NCBI GenBank assembly: GCA_046758705.1
Contig: JBHIAT010000052.1
Span: forward strand, 1 to 20,553
Direction: 5' to 3'
Length of the DNA: 20,553 nucleotides
Source: Candidatus Bipolaricaulia bacterium
Lineage (GTDB): Bacteria; Bipolaricaulota; Bipolaricaulia; JBHIAT01
Positions 1,292 through 11,766 of the stretch are shown here, piece by piece; positions within the stretch are counted from its first letter, which is position 1, and each line of letters begins with the position of its first letter. Both the position numbers and the translations under genes were made by a program. The notes beneath the pieces were generated by a model that searched no databases, was not told where the DNA came from, and saw nothing but the letters and a program-made list of their open reading frames with translations.

Positions 1292-1981
1292 ATGCGACGC
1301 CAACAGCTGGCGCAGATGATCGATCACACCCTAATCGGTCCCGAGACCTCGGCCGATGGCATCCGCAGACTTTGTAAAGAAGCAATCCAATATGGGTTCG
1401 CCTCTGTCTTGGTCAACCCCCGCCATGTAGCATTGGCGGTGGAACAGGTCCGCGAGCATCCGATCAAGGTCGCGACCGTTATCGGGTTTCCTCAAGGGGC
1501 GAATGCCGCCGCAGTCAAGGCGTTCGAGGCGCGGATCGCACTCGATGACGGGGCTGAAGAGCTTGACATGGTCATCGACATCGCGGCCCTCAAGGCGATG
1601 GACTACCGGGCTGTTCTCAACGAAATCCACGCAGTTGGTGAGGTCCTGGAGAAGCGACCGGCGGGCGGTGTGCTGAAGGTCATCCTGGAGACGGCGTTGC
1701 TGAGCGACGAGCAGATCGTGGCCGGGTGCATCCTGGCGGTCGGCGCCGGGGCCGATCATGTCAAGACCTCGACCGGCTTCGGTCCGGGTGGGGCGACGGT
1801 CGAAGCGGTCCGGTTGATGCGAAAGACCGTCGGAACGGAGTTCGGTGTGACGGCGGCCGGGGGAATCCGAGACTACGAGACCGCCGTCCAGATGATCGAT
1901 GCAGGGGCGACCCGGATCGGGACGTCCTCGGGTGTTGAGATCATCGAGGGTGCACCCGAACCCGAATCGTCGAGCGGTTAA
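1292..1981 (+). CDS. deoC: Deoxyribose-phosphate aldolase homologue with atypical active site
   Basis: IDHTL, VIGFP.GA, GAEELDMV, LKVILET, VKTSTGF, AAGGIR and GATRIGTS motifs, with RBS GGAGGT. The second catalytic Lys position is Thr. Confidence 0.88.
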   Translation: MRRQQLAQMIDHTLIGPETSADGIRRLCKEAIQYGFASVLVNPRHVALAVEQVREHPIKVATVIGFPQGANAAAVKAFEARIALDDGAEELDMVIDIAALKAMDYRAVLNEIHAVGEVLEKRPAGGVLKVILETALLSDEQIVAGCILAVGAGADHVKTSTGFGPGGATVEAVRLMRKTVGTEFGVTAAGGIRDYETAVQMIDAGATRIGTSSGVEIIEGAPEPESSSG

Positions 1982-2057
1982 GCCAAGGCAAGGAGCTGGC
2001 TCTAGAAATAACGGTTGGTAAGAGGCGTTAAGACCAGAAGTTGGGCAGGAAACTGGG

Positions 2058-2189
2058 TCAGCGGGTGAGGTACCAATTGTCGAAGAGCATCAGGATCAAT
2101 AAGAAGGCGAGGAGAGCGAAAAAGACGATCGGGGAGTATGGCTCCACCGTCTCCCAGATCTGCTTCAGACTCTCTATTGGGGTATCCAT
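2058..2189 (-). CDS. 43-aa single-pass membrane microprotein (not in ORF track)
   Basis: GGGGAGGT RBS 6 nt before ATG. Translation MDTPIESLKQIWETVEPYSPIVFFALLAFLLILMLFDNWYLTR has one clear hydrophobic segment. It lies 37 nt downstream of the PilX-like copy A stop, on the same strand. Confidence 0.65.
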   Translation of the reverse strand: MDTPIESLKQIWETVEPYSPIVFFALLAFLLILMLFDNWYLTR

Positions 2190-2226
2190 CTCTTGACCTC
2201 CCCAGAGAGATCTTCACTCGGCCGGT

Positions 2227-3351
2227 TCAAAGCTCTTTCCACGATATCCTCTGCAGGTCCGCATCGAAATCGATCCCCGTGAGCCCGATCTCCTCTAACC
2301 TGGCCGTCAGATTAGTATCATGGGTCACGGTCACATCCCCCTGCAGATCGACGCCGAACCCGACCAACACCCCGTAGATCTCGGGCGTTCCGCTTGACGC
2401 GATCTCGATCGCGCTCTCCGGCGCATAGATCGCCCCACGAATCTCGGCGGTCCCCCCGACGCTCACGTCGATGGTCACGCTCCCCGACCCTATGATGTAG
2501 ATGACCAGCGAACAGTTACCGGAGTCGGAGATGTCCATCGCATCGGCACAGCGGCCGAGCTCTGCGCTTCCTGAGAGTTCCATATCCCCGCTCACGAACA
2601 GCTGGACGTCTCCGTCGATGATGATCTCCTTGTTACCGGTTAAGTCGATCGCATCGTAGAGGTAGGTGGTCGCCGTGTCGGGATCGCCGTTGGTATCGGA
2701 AAGAGTGATTGTTGAGCTGAGGGTCTGACCGCTGTTATCGAAATCGTAGGAAGCAGGCTCGACGACCGGGGGGAGTGTCGACAACAGCCGGGTATCCCCG
2801 TTGATGGTGACATTGCCGGCCGTTTGGATTCCCCCGTCATAATCGGCAACGACCGCGTCCGAGAAGAACCGATCGGCAGCCGAGAAGGCTGCGAACATGA
2901 TCTCCTTCAGTATCCGCTCCGTCTGCCGAAACTCATTTCGGGAGAGGATATAGTAGACATCAGGCTCCAGCTCGACGACGAACACCTCAGCACCGCTCAC
3001 CTGATCGTCGAGGTCGGGGATGCCTTCGTTCGCCAACAGGTAGCCGGAGATCTGATACTCAGGGGGAACCCAATCTGGAGCGTTGACCTGCGCCGAAGTG
3101 AATTCGCCCTGTTGGGAGATGATGTACCCTTTAGCACGCTGGATACCGGATTCGGCGTTGTACAGGGTCTGTTCAAAGTCCTGTATCAGGGTGCTGTACC
3201 GCTGACTGTCAACAGAGATCTGCAGGTAGCCGTTGTTGACCAGCGTGATGATCAGCAGGGCGAATAAGGTGATGACCAGCACCGACCCTCGTTCGCCCCG
3301 TTGCCCGCTAAGATGCCTCCGTCTCAGCCCGTTCCACCCATGCATGTGCAT
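2227..3351 (-). CDS. PilX-like minor pilin / pilus assembly protein, copy A
   Basis: Basic leader, then ERG^SVLVITLFALLIITL class III signal without Glu5. PilX-N motif TLYNAESGIQRA, Gly/Asn/Thr-rich beta-repeat C-domain with GAIYAP, terminal WKEL, RBS GGAGGT. Confidence 0.8.
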   Translation of the reverse strand: MHMHGWNGLRRRHLSGQRGERGSVLVITLFALLIITLVNNGYLQISVDSQRYSTLIQDFEQTLYNAESGIQRAKGYIISQQGEFTSAQVNAPDWVPPEYQISGYLLANEGIPDLDDQVSGAEVFVVELEPDVYYILSRNEFRQTERILKEIMFAAFSAADRFFSDAVVADYDGGIQTAGNVTINGDTRLLSTLPPVVEPASYDFDNSGQTLSSTITLSDTNGDPDTATTYLYDAIDLTGNKEIIIDGDVQLFVSGDMELSGSAELGRCADAMDISDSGNCSLVIYIIGSGSVTIDVSVGGTAEIRGAIYAPESAIEIASSGTPEIYGVLVGFGVDLQGDVTVTHDTNLTARLEEIGLTGIDFDADLQRISWKEL

Positions 3352-3493
3352 AGCGCACCTCCATCAAGCGGTGTGGTCGCGCTGAAGCCCGTTCCAATTC
3401 AGCTTTAGGAGTCGAATCGGTCTGGGCCTGCAATAGTGGGTTGTACGGCTGACTTGTGAAGGCCTGACTGTGCTCAGAAGTTAAACTGTGCAT

Positions 3494-3584
3494 CGTCCTT
3501 CGGCAGCCCAGCCACCCTCGGCTTTACGTTAGGGCCTGTGGCTTTGTGCCCCTCCCTTTCGGAAGGTTTACCCGTTCAGGACCG
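3494..3584 (-). ncRNA. c-di-GMP-I (GEMM-I) riboswitch aptamer A3, gene-proximal
   Basis: Minus strand reads GTCCTGAACGGGTAAACCTTCCGAAAGGGAGGGGCACAAAGCCACAGGCC...GGTGGCTGGGCTGCCGAAGGAC. It shows a GAAA-capped P2, the CAAAG junction and P1 GTCC/GGAC. Confidence 0.85.
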
Positions 3585-3587
3585 ATT

Positions 3588-3677
3588 GACACCTCCTTCG
3601 GCAGCCCGGCTATCCGTTTGGATCCGTGGCTTTGCGTCCCCACCTTTCGATGGGTTTGCCTTTGTCGTGGACGTGTC
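3588..3677 (-). ncRNA. c-di-GMP-I riboswitch aptamer A2
   Basis: Minus strand reads GACACGTCCACGACAAAGGCAAACCCATCGAAAGGTGGGGACGCAAAGCCACGGATCC...TAGCCGGGCTGCCGAAGGAGGTGTC. This is the canonical GGCAAACC...GAAA...GACGCAAAGC...GCCGAA consensus. Confidence 0.92.
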
Positions 3678-3706
3678 TTAGGGGTTTACCGAATGGAGTG
3701 AAAATT

Positions 3707-3796
3707 GACACCTCCTTCGGCAGCCCGGCTATCCGTTTGGATCCGTGGCTTTGCGCCCCCACCTTTCGGTGGGTTTGCCTTTGTCGTGGACGTGTC
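3707..3796 (-). ncRNA. c-di-GMP-I riboswitch aptamer A1
   Basis: Near-identical copy of A2 (GGCAAACCCACCGAAAGGTGGGGGCGCAAAGCC...GCTGCCGAA) with extended P1 GACACGTCC/GGAGGTGTC. Confidence 0.9.
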
Positions 3797-3812
3797 TTAG
3801 GGCTTCACTTTA

Positions 3813-3818
3813 ATTATA
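3813..3818 (-). promoter_or_regulatory. -10 box for the riboswitch/PilX-like copy A transcript
   Basis: TATAAT on the minus strand 16 nt upstream of aptamer A1, conserved at the same position in unit B. No consensus -35 at 17 nt. Confidence 0.5.
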
Positions 3819-3893
3819 CCCTAAAAGTCAAACCTTCATACTTGAACGGGCTAACTGAGTGGATCGCCTCGGAGAGATCTTCACTCGACTGAT

Positions 3894-5003
3894 TCACAGC
3901 TCTTTCCAATCGACCCGCTGCAGCTCCGGACCGAAATCGATCCCCACGAGCCCGATCTCCTCCAACCTGGCCACCAGAGCAGCTTCGTAGGTCACTGTCA
4001 CATTCCCCCGCAGATCATCGCTGAACCCGACCAACACCCCGTAGATCTCGGGCGTTCCACTCGAGGACACGATCGTGGTCTCCGGCGCATAGATCGCCCC
4101 ACGAACCTCGGAAGTCCCCCTGATGGTCACGGTCCCCAACCCCAGGACGTAAATGATCAGCGAACAGTTCCCGGAGTCGGAGATGTCCAACGCATCGACA
4201 CACCGGCCGATCCTCGCATTTCCTCCGATGGTCACATCCCCGTTCACGAACAGCTGGACGTCTCCGTTGACGATGACCTCGTCGTTGCCGCTTAAATTGA
4301 TCGCATCGTAGCGGTAGGTCGTCGGCCCGTTGGGATTGGTATCGGAGAGAGTGATTGTTGAGCTTGGGTTAAGGGTCTCGCCACTGTGATCCTCATCATA
4401 GGGGTTGGGCGCGGTGATTGGAGAGAGTTGCGGCAACAGCTGGGTAGTCCCGTTGATAGTGGTATTGCCGTTCGTTTGGATCCCTCCGTCATCATCGGCG
4501 ACGACGGCGTCCGAGAAGAACCGATCGGCAGCCGAGAAGACCGCGAACATGATCTCCTTCAGTATCCGCTCCGTCTTTCGAAACTCATTTCGGGAGAGGA
4601 TATAGTAGACATCAGGCTCCAGCTCGACGATGAACACCTCAGCACCGCCCACCTGATCGCCGAGGTCGGGGATGCCTTCGTTCGCCAACAGGTAACCGGA
4701 GATCTGATACTCGGGGGGAACCCAATCTGGAGCGTTGACCTGCGCCGAAGTGAATTCACCCTGTTGGGAGACGATGTACTCTTTGGCACGCTGGATACCG
4801 GATTCGGCGTTGTACAGGGTCTGTTCAAAGTCCTGCATCAGGGTGCTGTACCGCTGACTGTCAACAGAAATCTGCATATAGCCATTGCTGACCAAGGTGA
4901 TAATCAGCAGGGCGAATAAGGTGATGATCAGCACCGACCCTCGCTCGTCCCGTTGCCCGCTAAGATGCCTTCGCAACAGCCCGTTCCACCAATGCATGTA
5001 CAT
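3894..5003 (-). CDS. PilX-like minor pilin / pilus assembly protein, copy B
   Basis: Paralogue of 2227-3351. Start placed at ATG 5003 (MYMHWW) from the AGGAGGT RBS and alignment to copy A, rather than at 5102. Confidence 0.8.
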   Translation of the reverse strand: MYMHWWNGLLRRHLSGQRDERGSVLIITLFALLIITLVSNGYMQISVDSQRYSTLMQDFEQTLYNAESGIQRAKEYIVSQQGEFTSAQVNAPDWVPPEYQISGYLLANEGIPDLGDQVGGAEVFIVELEPDVYYILSRNEFRKTERILKEIMFAVFSAADRFFSDAVVADDDGGIQTNGNTTINGTTQLLPQLSPITAPNPYDEDHSGETLNPSSTITLSDTNPNGPTTYRYDAINLSGNDEVIVNGDVQLFVNGDVTIGGNARIGRCVDALDISDSGNCSLIIYVLGLGTVTIRGTSEVRGAIYAPETTIVSSSGTPEIYGVLVGFSDDLRGNVTVTYEAALVARLEEIGLVGIDFGPELQRVDWKEL

Positions 5004-5149
5004 CAGGCACCTCCTGAGATTCAGCGGTGTAGTTGTACAGAAGCCCGTTCCAATCGAGCTTTGGGAGTCGAATCGGTCTGGGCCTGCAATGGTGGGTTGC
5101 ACGGCTGGCCTGGGAAGACCTGAGTGTGCTCAGAAGTTAAACTGTGCAT

Positions 5150-5240
5150 CGTCCTTCGGCAGCCCAGCCACCCTCGGCTTTACGTTAGGGCCTGTGGCTT
5201 TGTGCCCCTCCCTTTCGGAAGGTTTACCCGTTCAGGACCG
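5150..5240 (-). ncRNA. c-di-GMP-I riboswitch aptamer B3, gene-proximal
   Basis: Same sequence as A3. Confidence 0.85.
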
Positions 5241-5243
5241 ATT

Positions 5244-5333
5244 GACACCTCCCTCGGTAGCCCGGCCATCCTTGTGGATCCGTGGCTTTGCGTCCCCACC
5301 TTTCGGTGGGTTTGCCTTTGTCGTGGGCGTGTC
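5244..5333 (-). ncRNA. c-di-GMP-I riboswitch aptamer B2
   Basis: Minus strand reads GACACGCCCACGACAAAGGCAAACCCACCGAAAGGTGGGGACGCAAAGCCACGGATCCACAAGGATGGCCGGGCTACCGAGGGAGGTGTC, the canonical consensus. Confidence 0.92.
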
Positions 5334-5348
5334 TTAGGGATTCACTGA

Positions 5349-5401
5349 GTGGCTTTGCATCCCCACCCTTTCGATGGGTTTGCTTTTGCCGTGGATGTGT
5401 C
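5349..5401 (-). ncRNA. Truncated c-di-GMP-I aptamer B1 (5' half only)
   Basis: Minus strand reads GACACATCCACGGCAAAAGCAAACCCATCGAAAGGGTGGGGATGCAAAGCCAC, then homology stops. P3 and the 3' strand of P1 are missing. Confidence 0.7.
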
Positions 5402-5417
5402 TTAGGGCTTCACTTTG

Positions 5418-5423
5418 ATTATA
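5418..5423 (-). promoter_or_regulatory. -10 box for the riboswitch/PilX-like copy B transcript
   Basis: TATAAT on the minus strand, positionally equivalent to 3813-3818. Confidence 0.5.
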
Positions 5424-5472
5424 CCCAAAAAAACCAAACCTCTATACCTGAGCGGAGTTGTCAGGGCAACTG

Positions 5473-5501
5473 TTGACAAACAGGGGTTGACAGGGTATAA
5501 T
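5473..5501 (+). promoter_or_regulatory. Consensus sigma70 promoter of the ArsR-rhodanese operon
   Basis: Perfect TTGACA (5473-5478) - 17 nt - TATAAT (5496-5501). Confidence 0.8.
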
Positions 5502-5519
5502 TCAAGGAATCTATTGAAT
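5500..5519. promoter_or_regulatory. Probable ArsR-family operator
   Basis: Inverted repeat ATTCAA-N8-TTGAAT overlapping the -10 end and predicted +1, directly upstream of an ArsR-family gene. Confidence 0.65.
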
Positions 5520-5548
5520 ACTATAGAGGGGAGGCCATTGTCAATCTC

Positions 5549-6214
5549 ATGATGAGCGAGAAACGGCAGCACAAAGAGCGACTCTACCACCTGTTTGCTC
5601 AGGTGGCCAGTGCCATGGCCAACCCTCACCGTCTGGAACTGCTAGACCTGCTGGTACAGGCGCCGCGCACCGTGGAGGAGCTGGCCCGCGAGGCAAGTAT
5701 GAGCGTGGCCAACACCTCTCAACATCTGCAACGGCTCAAGCAGGCCCGGCTGGTGGTGAACGAGCGTGACGGGCTGTATGTTCGCTACCACCTGGCCGAC
5801 CCGGCCGTCGCCCGTTTGTGGCTGAAACTGCGCGCTGTGGCCGAGCGACAGCTGGCAGAGGTGGAGCAGGCCCTCGATGCCTATCGCAACCGGCGGCACG
5901 AGTTTGAGTGGATTTCGGCCGACGAGCTGCGGACGCGGCTGCGCAACGGTGAGGTCGTGTTGCTGGACGTGCGACCCGGGGTGGAGTATCAGGCAGGCCA
6001 TCTGCCCGGAGCGATTTCTATCCCCCTGGATGAGCTGGAACACCGGCTGAGCGAGCTTCCTCAGGACCAGACGATCGTTGCTTACTGCCGCGGCCCCTAC
6101 TGTGTCTACGCCGATGAGGCGTTGGAGCTGCTGGCCGAGCGGGGGTGGAACGTCGCCCGCCTGGAGGAGGGGGTGGCCGAATGGCAACAGACGGGTTACG
6201 TCCTGGAGGAGTAA
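5549..6214 (+). CDS. ArsR/SmtB family regulator fused to a rhodanese domain
   Basis: HTH ANPHRLELLDLL...SVANTSQHLQRLKQARLV. Rhodanese motifs LLDVRP..EY..GHLPGA, active-site loop YCRGPYC, and LEEGVAEW. Confidence 0.92.
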   Translation: MMSEKRQHKERLYHLFAQVASAMANPHRLELLDLLVQAPRTVEELAREASMSVANTSQHLQRLKQARLVVNERDGLYVRYHLADPAVARLWLKLRAVAERQLAEVEQALDAYRNRRHEFEWISADELRTRLRNGEVVLLDVRPGVEYQAGHLPGAISIPLDELEHRLSELPQDQTIVAYCRGPYCVYADEALELLAERGWNVARLEEGVAEWQQTGYVLEE

Positions 6215-6235
6215 CCGTGTAGAAAGGAGGTAGAG

Positions 6236-6352
6236 ATGCAGGTGGTATCGGTTCGGGAGAATCGACAGTATGGGTTTCTTTCCGAGTCAGCACAGGAGAC
6301 CAGCGAGGATTTTGGCGTCAAGAGCGTCTCTCTGGTTGCGGAAAAGGTGTAA
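6236..6352 (+). CDS. Putative 38-aa small protein (not in ORF track)
   Basis: AAAGGAGGT RBS 4 nt before ATG. Translation MQVVSVRENRQYGFLSESAQETSEDFGVKSVSLVAEKV. It fills the gap between two co-oriented genes. Confidence 0.45.
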   Translation: MQVVSVRENRQYGFLSESAQETSEDFGVKSVSLVAEKV

Positions 6353-6396
6353 AGCCTTACAATTCGTAAAATTCGAAATTTGAAAGGGAGCATACC

Positions 6397-7125
6397 ATGT
6401 ACTTTCGACAGATCCTTCATGAAGAGAAAGCCTGTATCTCATACCTTGTCGGCTGTCCGACGTTTGGTCCGTGTGCCGTGGTGGATCCTCAGGGCGATCC
6501 GGAAACCTACATCGATCAGGTTAAGAAAAACGAGTTGGAGATCAGCGTGATCATCGAGACACACGTACACGCGGATCACCTCTCGTGTGCCCGAGAGCTG
6601 GCGGCGCTGACCGGCGTGCCACTGTACCTCGGCCCGGGCGCCGACGTGCGCTACGAACACGTACCGCTGGCCGACGGGCAGGTATTGGAGGTGGGCAACC
6701 GACTCATCCAAGCGATCCACACACCCGGCCACACCCCCGAGCACATCTGCCTGCTGGTAGACGATTGGTTCGTCCTCACCGGTGACACGCTGTTCGTCGG
6801 TGACGTGGGGCGTGTGGATCTGGCGTTGAACGATGTATCCGCCGACGAGATTCGCGCCCGCGCTGTGCAGCTCTACCACGGCCTGAACCGCTTGTTGGAG
6901 CTGTCGGATTGGACCGAAATCTATCCCGGTCACTATGAGGGATCGGTGTGCGGACGCGGCATAGACGGCAAGACGATCTCGACCATCGGCTACGAGCGAC
7001 GCAGCAATCCCGCACTGCAACTTTCAGCCGATGCCTTTGCGGACTTCCAGATCGAGGGCCTGCCGCCGTTGCCGGCTGACTTTCACATCATCAAACGTCG
7101 GAACCTGGGATATGAGGGGTCTTGA
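6397..7125 (+). CDS. MBL-fold metallo-hydrolase, persulfide dioxygenase (Blh/CstB/ETHE1)-like
   Basis: ETHVHADHLS, HTPGHTPEH, LTGDTLFVGDVGR, IYPGH..GSVCG and STIGYERR.N motifs. Confidence 0.9.
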   Translation: MYFRQILHEEKACISYLVGCPTFGPCAVVDPQGDPETYIDQVKKNELEISVIIETHVHADHLSCARELAALTGVPLYLGPGADVRYEHVPLADGQVLEVGNRLIQAIHTPGHTPEHICLLVDDWFVLTGDTLFVGDVGRVDLALNDVSADEIRARAVQLYHGLNRLLELSDWTEIYPGHYEGSVCGRGIDGKTISTIGYERRSNPALQLSADAFADFQIEGLPPLPADFHIIKRRNLGYEGS

Positions 7126-8386
7126 GCACCCGAAAGATGCGGTGAGATTGGGTCTGCAGGCCAACTGGCAACAGTTTACACTGCTTGTGATCGTCAACGC
7201 GTTCGTCGGGGCGATGGTCGGGTTGGAGCGTACCGTCGTCCCGCTGATTGCCGAGGCCGACTTCGGCCTGGTCTCGAAGTCGGCTGTGCTGTCCTTCCTG
7301 ATCAGCTTCGGGGTGGCCAAGGCAGGGGTCAACCTGCTTGCCGGACGCCTGTCCGACCGGCTGGGGCGCAAGCGTATCCTGATCACCGGCTGGCTGTTCG
7401 GCCTGCCTGTGCCGCTGCTGATCATCTTCGCGCCCAGCTGGAGCTGGGTGGTGTTCGCCAACGTGCTGCTGGGGATCAATCAAGGTCTGTGCTGGTCTAC
7501 GACCGTGATCATGAAGATTGACCTGGTCGGGCCGAAGCAACGCGGACTGGCGATGGGGCTGAACGAGTCCGCTGGCTATCTGGCCGTCTCCGCCTCGGCG
7601 CTGGCGACCGGCTACCTGGCAGCCACTTATGGCTTGCGACCCGGGCCGTTCTACCCCGGCATCGCGTTCGCCTTCCTGGGCTTGCTGTTCTCCATCTTCT
7701 TCGTGCGTGACACGCGCCCCCACGCCCGTTACGAGGCGCAGTTGACTGCGGCGGAACCTATCGCGCAAAACGACAACTCGGAGAAACCGTCGTTTGCCCA
7801 GATCCTGTGGCTCACCAGTTGGAAAGACCGGGCGTTGTTCTCCGCCAGCCAGGCGGGGATGGTCAACAACCTGAACGACGGGCTGTTCTGGGGGCTGATC
7901 CCCATCTTCCTGGCCGCTGCCGGGCTGCCTCTTGAACAGATCGCCATCATCGCCGCGATTTATCCGGGTGTATGGGGTCTGGGTCAACTCATCACCGGTG
8001 CGCTCAGCGATCGCTGGGGCCGCAAGTGGATGATCGCTGCCGGCATGTGGGTGCAGGCGGTCGGCATCGGGCTGTTTGTCGTCGGCCAAGGCTTCTGGAC
8101 GTGGATCGGCGCCGCGGTGCTGCTGGGCCTAGGCACGGCGCTGGTGTACCCGACACTACTGGCGGCCGTCTCCGATGTGGCCCATCCCGAGTGGCGGGCT
8201 TCCGCTGTTGGCGTCTACCGCCTGTGGCGTGATGGGGGACTGGCGGTGGGCGCGCTCACCGCGGGGTTGCTGGCCGACGCGCTCGGTATTCCGGCCGCCA
8301 TCGCCACCGTCGGCGCACTGACGCTCGTTTCGGGCGTGATTGTCGCCCGGACGATGTACGAGACACTGCCCGCACGACGGGCTTGA
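7112..8386 (+). CDS. MFS transporter
   Basis: Many hydrophobic segments and two motif-A copies (GRLSDRLGRK, GALSDRWGRK). Start placed at ATG 7112, overlapping the end of the MBL gene. Confidence 0.92.
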   Translation: MRGLEHPKDAVRLGLQANWQQFTLLVIVNAFVGAMVGLERTVVPLIAEADFGLVSKSAVLSFLISFGVAKAGVNLLAGRLSDRLGRKRILITGWLFGLPVPLLIIFAPSWSWVVFANVLLGINQGLCWSTTVIMKIDLVGPKQRGLAMGLNESAGYLAVSASALATGYLAATYGLRPGPFYPGIAFAFLGLLFSIFFVRDTRPHARYEAQLTAAEPIAQNDNSEKPSFAQILWLTSWKDRALFSASQAGMVNNLNDGLFWGLIPIFLAAAGLPLEQIAIIAAIYPGVWGLGQLITGALSDRWGRKWMIAAGMWVQAVGIGLFVVGQGFWTWIGAAVLLGLGTALVYPTLLAAVSDVAHPEWRASAVGVYRLWRDGGLAVGALTAGLLADALGIPAAIATVGALTLVSGVIVARTMYETLPARRA

Positions 8387-10742: not shown

Positions 10743-10812
10743 TGAAAGCGAGCCTTGAGCGGCTCTGTTCTAAGGATTGCAGGACATTTCCTTATCTTGT
10801 GGGAGAACCTTC

Positions 10813-11766
10813 ATGGGGCGCGCTGAGAAAGAAACCGATGCGCGGATCATTGTGGATCGTCTGCTGCGGGAGTCGGGTTGGGACCCAGAAGATAAATCTC
10901 AGGTACTGACGGAGGAGCCGGCGGCAGATGGATCGGCTGACTACGTCCTCCTGGACAGCCGTGGTCGACCCCTTGCAGTAGTGGAAGCCAAACGCTTTTC
11001 CAAGGATCCCTATTCCGCCCGACAGCAGGCCAGGGATTACGCGGAAGCTCTTGAGGCCCCCTTCATCTTCCTTTCTAACGGTGAGACCACCTATTTCTGG
11101 GATTACACCGTGACTGACGCGCGCCAGGTGGTAGCATTTTTCCCACGCCGAGACCTCGAACGCATCATGACACTTCGCCGGTTCCGGAAGCCCCTCTCGA
11201 CCGTTCCCATTCCTGAAGAGGTCTTCATCCAAGGTGAGGAGAAACGGGTACGCCCTTATCAGAAGCAATGTCTTCAGGCTATGGATGCTGCCATTGAAAC
11301 GGGGAAACGGCGACTCTTGATCGAGATGGCCACAGCGACGGGAAAGACCCTCACGATAGCGATGGCTCTGAAGCGGTTCTTTCAGGCGGGAGTCACTCAG
11401 CGAGTGCTTTTCCTGGTGGACCGCTTAGAATTGGCAAATCAGGCCAAAGAGGTGTTCAACGATCACCTCAAGGACTTTCCGTCTGTGGTCCTATACGGAG
11501 GTCGGCGAAGCAAAGAGGGGCAGATCGTCATCGCACTATACTGGCAGCAGATAGTTTTGCATAAGCAAGGCGCAGCGCAGCCTAATGTCAATAGCCGAAG
11601 GCTTAAAACCATCCGCCTCTATCTGCCCCCACTTCCTGTCCAGCAGCGTATCGTGGCCAAACTCGACCACATTGAACGTGCTCTGAAGTTCCAGCAGGAA
11701 GGGCTCAAGAAGATGGAGACCCTGATGCAGACAGCACTCCATAGGGCGTTTCGGGGAGAGTTATAA
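10813..11766 (+). pseudogene. hsdR: In-frame chimera: type I restriction subunit HsdR N-terminus fused to the C-terminal tail of HsdS
   Basis: HsdR features are E.DARI.VD.LL...GW, nuclease ADYVL...VVEAK, FLSNG, RPYQ, MATATGKT and LFLVDR..LA.Q. After about 11535 the frame becomes GAAQPNVN...LPPLPVQQRIV...AFRGEL, an HsdS C-terminus. There is no DEAD/DECH motif and no hsdM. Confidence 0.8.

Follow-up and report, generated by a model that had tools for sequence, protein, structure and literature searches.

The leader of a PilX-like gene in a genome of Candidatus Bipolaricaulia raises the question of how three closely packed c-di-GMP-I (GEMM-I) aptamers can act on a single gene. Tandems of this class are classified as series of switches that work independently, but in this leader two of the aptamers appear to share one platform. 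A first-pass annotation of the locus had described the three as a stack with no expression platform between them. We analysed the whole stretch of 20,553 nt that holds the locus (from here: the window), in which the gene and its leader occur in two copies, A and B. Coordinates without a contig label refer to the window and to its minus strand unless stated otherwise.

The identity of the aptamers held up in covariance-model searches. Over the whole window Rfam gave five matches at gathering score, three in the leader of copy A (~3789-3716, ~3670-3597 and ~3582-3499) and two in that of copy B. The three of copy A had been annotated as complete aptamers, and with RF01051 scores of 74.8, 76.4 and 63.5 bits they all exceed its gathering cut-off of 35. 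With extended P1 helices, A1 (3707-3796) and A2 (3588-3677) belong to one type, here called alpha, and A3 (3495-3582) to a second, beta; the leader of copy B holds one alpha (5253-5326) and one beta aptamer (5155-5238), both found by Rfam and RF01051. All five lie within 3499-5326, in keeping with the earlier count of five intact aptamers in less than 2 kb. The P2 GAAA tetraloop of the RF01051 class is present, and A1, A2 and A3 carry the pocket residues G, A and C at positions that we take to be equivalent to Vc2 G20, A47 and C92, including the G that had been read at the first of these. The GGC variant model (RF03167) gave 80.6, 80.9 and 63.1 bits for A1, A2 and A3; its label presumably denotes a G at the A47 position, and because all five matches in the window have A and not the model's G at position 47, the label is a scoring effect and this assignment was rejected. 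A reading as cGAMP aptamers was rejected on the G at position 20; the G/A rule at this pocket position is given in PMC9481103 (Fig. 3 legend). A1 to A3 are ordinary RF01051 members by score and pocket and are predicted to bind c-di-GMP; the genome has nine GGDEF matches.

The close packing was likewise described correctly. Between model ends the gaps are 45 nt (A1-A2) and 14 nt (A2-A3), and the reported spacing of about 29 and 3 nt holds when it is counted between the extended P1 helices. A scan of positions 1500-8000 returned no terminator-like site on the minus strand, in agreement with the claim that no U-tailed terminator lies between the aptamers or before the start codon; the two sites on the plus strand are P2 hairpins read in reverse. 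Contigs from three vent runs reach over both flanks, and among the pieces listed none spans the triple. The sequencing runs listed as carrying the stretch are vent metagenomes from a single study, with no RNA run among them. An assembly echo is argued against by the A1-A2 linker (29 nt, 3678-3706), which is unique in the genome, together with the differences between A1 and A2 at 3 of 99 sites.

What did not stand is the absence of an expression platform, as a ribosome-binding site is interleaved with the aptamers and a leader ORF comes after it. The linker between A2 and A3 is a strong Shine-Dalgarno sequence (SD, 3590-3598; a 9-nt match to the 16S 3′ end on contig C39), and the same stretch forms the 3′ strand of A2's P1. 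An AUG follows at 3493, 1 nt after A3's P1. The first-pass annotation had noted neither this SD nor the AUG, and had likewise missed the -10 box at 3813-3818 and a decayed sixth unit at 5349-5411. The linear distance between SD and AUG is about 97 nt, versus a summed spacing of 9 + 1 = 10 nt across A3; SD and start codon are therefore at working distance only across the folded insert, an arrangement that we call a split ribosome-binding site. Summed spacings of 8-10 nt occur in seven loci of four families and additionally at G011:C58, and the commonest GGAGG-ATG spacing in the source genome (G000) is 8. The lower P1 of A3 covaries among 13 aligned loci, with two pairs showing two-sided changes. 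A2 and A3 thus have the layout of adjacent like aptamers on one platform, with a single SD and start codon that would serve both. The suggestion that several aptamers act on one platform is supported for these two, while the platform itself, held to be absent, is there. Folding in the window without ligand gives a cost of 5-7 kcal/mol at 37 °C and 3-5 kcal/mol at 55-70 °C for opening the linker SD; it is costly to open even in the ligand-free state, and the leader ORF may therefore be weak. The linker SD and the foot start codon probably constitute the ancestral platform, and we lean slightly towards its still operating in copy A through the leader ORF.

The order SD, aptamer, start codon recurs in relatives. 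The sample comprised 27 matches from the source genome and 181 of the 183 matches listed for 20 relatives (two were dropped for too little flank), the relatives having been hand-picked for many matches or for likeness to the window. Filtering for at least 40 bits, an intact 3′ end and enough flank left 147 aptamers. A foot start, taken as a start codon within -1 to +8 nt of the aptamer, opened at least 140 codons in 37 of them; an ordinary ribosome site downstream is absent in 28 of these 37 and present in 70 of the remaining 110. Among the 28 loci, eight have an SD of at least 6 nt that precedes the aptamer by 7-11 nt (against a mean of 0.8 in shuffles, p 0.0005), and four control bins gave 1, 2, 3 and 1; without the source genome the count is 7/25 versus 4/90 (p 0.002). 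At a threshold of 5 nt the control window equals the test window (8/22 each). The positives, spread over five families of the phylum (f1, f6, f7, f9 and f10), stand at the head of secreted-protein genes; the eight fall into two gene families and are not independent of one another, one gene family encoding an unnamed secreted protein of ~175 aa and the other a reprolysin-like protein (below cut-off). The upstream SD is missing in 20 of the 28 loci, including the orthologues G023:C18, G027:C37, G007:C21 and that in G004, and is thus not obligatory. A signal-peptide-like start was seen in 22 of 131 foot ORFs, and in one family all eight aligned members begin at the foot codon. The SD is kept where the alpha aptamer is decayed or absent, though the flanks diverge.

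The recurring unit consists of an alpha aptamer, 12-14 nt and a beta aptamer. Six model-scored doublets with this gap were found in the source genome, and G086, G105 and G106 have doublets whose gaps measure 12-18 nt. The view that adjacent aptamers are unique to the source genome was rejected once such doublets had turned up in G086, G105, G106, G022 and G030 by BLAST and model searches; a strict adjacent-aptamer pattern occurs in the source genome alone among 184 genomes of the phylum. In GTDB the strict pattern returned ten stretches, none of them with an Rfam match, and two metagenome pattern scans returned no match. Stripped beta aptamers, devoid of the A-rich bulge and the tetraloop and missed by RF01051, are located at C190:4500-4580, C97 and C112 of the source genome.

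The searches brought up two further arrangements in the phylum. One is the nesting of c-di-GMP-I aptamers: the P3 of an outer aptamer carries a complete second one in its apical loop, with the outer P3 and P1 closing behind it and a secreted-protein gene next (G022:C43:46009-46172, G101:C2:37669-37802, G005:C169:160-296, G017:C87:28908-29044, G030:C9:40055-40236, G026:C15, G001:C44, G028:C5 and G086:C49:4551-4693). The motif, recognized by the outer 3′ strand, is present in 11 of 18 model pairs of the type half plus full, in six families, and in none of the source genome. A search of the open-access literature at the level of search results found no nested c-di-GMP-I aptamers, which may be more unusual than the split site. 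In several single aptamers P1 pairs the start codon itself (G086:C15:8950, G011:C65:1391, G011:C36:11731, G027:C62:43303, G007:C5:37937 and G106:C7:33055); these often stand directly behind a -10 box, without any SD, and one of the genes has a cyclic-nucleotide-binding domain.

In the window, the AUG at the foot of A3 opens a putatively translated leader ORF of 61 codons (3308-3493), which lies in another frame than the PilX-like gene and overlaps its first 44 nt. The leader ORF of copy B has 42 codons (5021-5149), and its stop lies 6 nt upstream of gene B's SD. A foot start was present in 10 of 12 loci of the source genome, of which two open long genes directly (C55, C82c) and eight open leader ORFs. 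Five of these eight leader ORFs, in differing frames, end no more than 10 nt short of the following SD or overlap the start that comes next, against 0.63 expected, with the stop window set after the data had been seen and the loci being related. Copy B is among the five; copy A overruns, and the leader ORFs at C190 and C97 stop early.

The genes themselves, of 374 aa (copy A, 2227-3351, from the ORF list) and 369 aa (copy B, 3894-5003), share 77% protein identity. Both pass for DUF7305 (PF23981), and the N-terminus is weakly PilX-like, PilX_N staying under its cut-off with E values of 0.05 and 0.0011, so that the earlier term stand-alone pilins was loose. NCBIfam gave nothing above cut-off, a homologue search returned only four proteins of near length, and a single-sequence fold was unusable (pLDDT 35.7). 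The SD of gene A (3358-3362) lies within a hairpin whose opening is predicted to cost 6.1 kcal/mol at 37 °C, whatever the folded state. Conserved stretches follow each pilX-like stop (3856-3890 and 2190-2225), with a possible hairpin and no U tail, and there may be read-through from gene B into leader A.

Our preferred reading, tentative and at slightly less than even confidence, is a double lock of A2 and A3 on a single initiation site, by which the PilX-like gene would be switched off at high c-di-GMP by way of the leader ORF. A ribosome would dock on the linker SD and, A3 being looped out, reach the AUG in the manner of the T4 genes 38 and 25. Binding of c-di-GMP to A2 would lock the SD in P1, binding to A3 would lock the foot of P1 beside or onto the AUG, and either aptamer alone would suffice to shut initiation. 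The leader ORF, possibly the remnant of the 5′ end of an ancestral secreted-protein gene, would pass the signal on, as ribosomes translating it would open the hairpin over the pilX-like SD. Once these ribosomes are missing, pilX-like translation would be off and the bare leader exposed to Rho, a possible back-up for which the factor is present in the genome; the net effect would be a sharpened shut-off of the PilX-like gene at high c-di-GMP. We commit to this direction, which we hold to be moderately likely, because the SD would be hidden at saturating ligand whether A3 acts as a lock or as a bridge. In favour of this reading, folding of the paralogues C190, C97 and C112 predicts that binding closes the downstream SD in most settings, by up to ~4 kcal/mol. 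Such an OFF cassette would run against two single-aptamer loci that are predicted to be ON (C14a and C14b), and in copy A the leader ORF, overrunning the pilX start, could repress instead.

The bridge just mentioned is the alternative in which c-di-GMP on A3 forms P1 and so brings SD and AUG to working distance (ON), with A2 hiding the SD at higher ligand (OFF). A natural aptamer would then be a ligand-gated bridge within a split site, the pair with A2 would be a band-pass filter, the lone beta aptamers of relatives would be ON switches, and the device would be spread over several families and relayed here by the leader ORF. We consider this rather unlikely. The spacing of 8-10 nt is true only with P1 formed, the start codon is unpaired in P1 in most SD-positive loci, intervening structure aids initiation in the T4 genes 38 and 25, and the other riboswitches of the regulon look ON (from folding, with terminator types judged by eye); yet in family f8, and at several loci of the source genome, the start codon itself can be paired within P1, and a three-way junction only 0-2 nt away from the P site on its upstream side would be far bulkier than a T4 hairpin. 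An earlier model of ours, now kept as a rival, regards the split site as vestigial and places control in strand S (3408-3422), which is complementary to the A2-A3 linker plus the 5′ strand of A3's P1 and can alternatively form the 5′ arm of hairpin H1 (3′ arm 3401-3394). Strand S would pair with the linker without ligand and flip into H1 when A3 (and A2) bind, altering access to the pilX SD. It is invariant at 13 of 15 columns versus 13 of 57 in the spacer (six paralogues), and is kept exactly at the linker-complementary columns also in C112 and C23, where the 3′ arm of H1 is altered or lost. In constrained folding with the beta aptamer held folded, it switches from linker to hairpin in five of five loci; alpha-beta coupling of -2.5 to -4.1 kcal/mol (secondary structure only) appears in C190 and C97, the two whose leader ORFs stop early. 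Against this model, two-sided covariation of strand S was not found, its duplex energies lie barely beyond shuffles (p 0.07, 0.26, 0.07, 0.025 and 0.33; 0.75 for C149), and for the window's two copies, where the model, with its anti-SD and pilX SD, failed, folding predicts neither coupling nor any ligand effect on the pilX SD. The same folding method does detect switches at C14a and C14b, both of them predicted to be ON. Strand S as the seat of control is in our estimate unlikely. A further helix, P0, between a heptamer of the 5′ leader (3800-3806) and 3390-3384 is predicted in all states; it is invariant, with no covariation.

Both the double lock and its rivals leave A1 to be accounted for. 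It duplicates A2 almost exactly (96 of 99 sites identical), and no canonical start codon stands behind its SD-like strand. The A1-A2 linker resembles a collapsed upstream or promoter stretch of the cassette, which would hint at its origin. The counterpart in copy B is a decayed first alpha unit (5349-5411) that has lost P3, has A at position 20 and gives no Rfam match. Surplus, incomplete or decayed units are present at C52 copy B, C97, C14, C55, C66, C68, C183 and C207, and C97 has a second promoter with half an aptamer. Since extra first units come and go, A1 would most simply be a surplus copy, and we are largely confident that the doublet A2+A3 is the working unit and A1 a spare. In the extreme form of this argument the stack is mostly duplication debris, left as copies of a promoter-aptamer cassette arose and decayed; no more than one aptamer would matter, with the others neutral or buffering c-di-GMP. 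The many extra units at loci of the source genome agree with it, and for A1 it is probably right. Doublet, gap and SD are kept across families, and A3 is identical between copies A and B despite diverged four-fold sites (coding four-fold sites of the two copies differ at 8/67 and 19/78), which gene conversion could also explain; for the stack as a whole debris is improbable. At the other extreme, the annotation's purpose-built cooperative stack of three is not supported, given the duplicate nature of A1, the broken equivalent in copy B and the folding of the window, in which A1-A2 and A2-A3 show no positive coupling (-0.1 to +0.4 kcal/mol). A1 is intact and folds at low cost, and its coupling with A3 amounts to +2.9 kcal/mol at 37 °C but only +0.3 at 60 °C; that all three act together, cooperatively or with A1 opposing A3 through pairing of the A1-A2 linker with the 3′ arm of H1, is very improbable, the linker being unique. 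The proposal of a c-di-GMP sponge found positive evidence for no aptamer except A1.

Doublets and triplets of c-di-GMP-I aptamers as such are already known: a survey counted 347 doublets and 12 triplets and placed the class under multiple platforms (PMC9481103), and in a study of contiguous riboswitches it was enriched among tandems with separate platforms (PMC12452182). In the latter, the limit for adjacent aptamers is 20 nt, under which the 14-nt gap between A2 and A3 falls; the supplementary tables of both papers may list close c-di-GMP pairs. The closest precedent in number is Bc3-5 of Bacillus thuringiensis, where each unit is complete with its own terminator, independent and ON (PMC4759541). 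Like Bc3-5, the present leader has three class I aptamers; unlike it, no terminator was found on the minus strand, the P1 gaps of 29 and 3 nt leave no platform of its own to each aptamer, A2 and A3 share one ribosome site, and A1 is apparently surplus. With the glycine and guanidine-II dual-aptamer riboswitches (PMC9481103, Table 1) the locus shares two like aptamers and one output, whereas here no aptamer-aptamer contact is evident, and the platform is not behind the aptamers but interleaved, with the SD in the first P1 and the start at the foot of the second. The T4 genes 38 and 25, in which structure shortens the SD-AUG distance from 22 to 5 and from 27 to 11 nt (PMC3014915, PMC7297116), resemble it in that structure between SD and AUG cuts the distance to a working one, here from ~97 to 10 nt. 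The T4 elements are plain ligand-free hairpins proven by mutation, while the present insert is a ligand-binding three-way junction in a putative initiation site. No natural aptamer inside a split ribosome-binding site was found in a search of the open-access literature at search-result level.

The proposed shared split-site platform is new, and the aptamers themselves belong to a known class. Standard searches would miss such a platform because its SD lies upstream of the last aptamer. An aptamer of ~88 nt within a ribosome-binding site also raises the question of how much structure between SD and start codon an initiating ribosome can accommodate. The layout could serve as a compact sensor part, and the triple itself carries little weight.

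The source genome contains at least 27 RF01051 matches (150 of 230 candidates scored), plus partial units. The cassette promoter of copy A has a -10 box (TATAAT, 3813-3818), with transcription probably starting near 3806, and a -35 region that is not consensus, which is why the promoter scan did not list it; for copy B a hexamer search placed the -10 box at 5418-5423. In 18 of the genome's 19 riboswitch loci, a -10 hexamer with at least 5/6 matches precedes the first aptamer by 17-51 nt. Window positions 3813-3850 share one promoter type with 18 other loci: its -10 box is good, its spacer is T-rich and then G-rich, and a GTAT-like upstream element replaces the consensus -35; it may belong to an alternative sigma factor. 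On contig C14 of the same genome, single aptamers at 2004-2077 and 4298-4371 carry an anti-SD in the 5′ strand of P1 and are predicted to be translational ON switches. On the plus strand of the window a perfect TTGACA-17-TATAAT promoter (5473-5501) diverges from cassette B, and downstream of it follow genes for an ArsR-rhodanese protein, a metallo-beta-lactamase-fold protein and an MFS transporter. Positions 215-1272 hold toxin-antitoxin-like genes, namely a CopG-type antitoxin, a ribbon-helix-helix protein and a PemK/MazF-like toxin. The ORF at 10777-11766 looks by eye like a fusion of the start of a type I restriction subunit with the end of a specificity subunit and is probably a deletion remnant.
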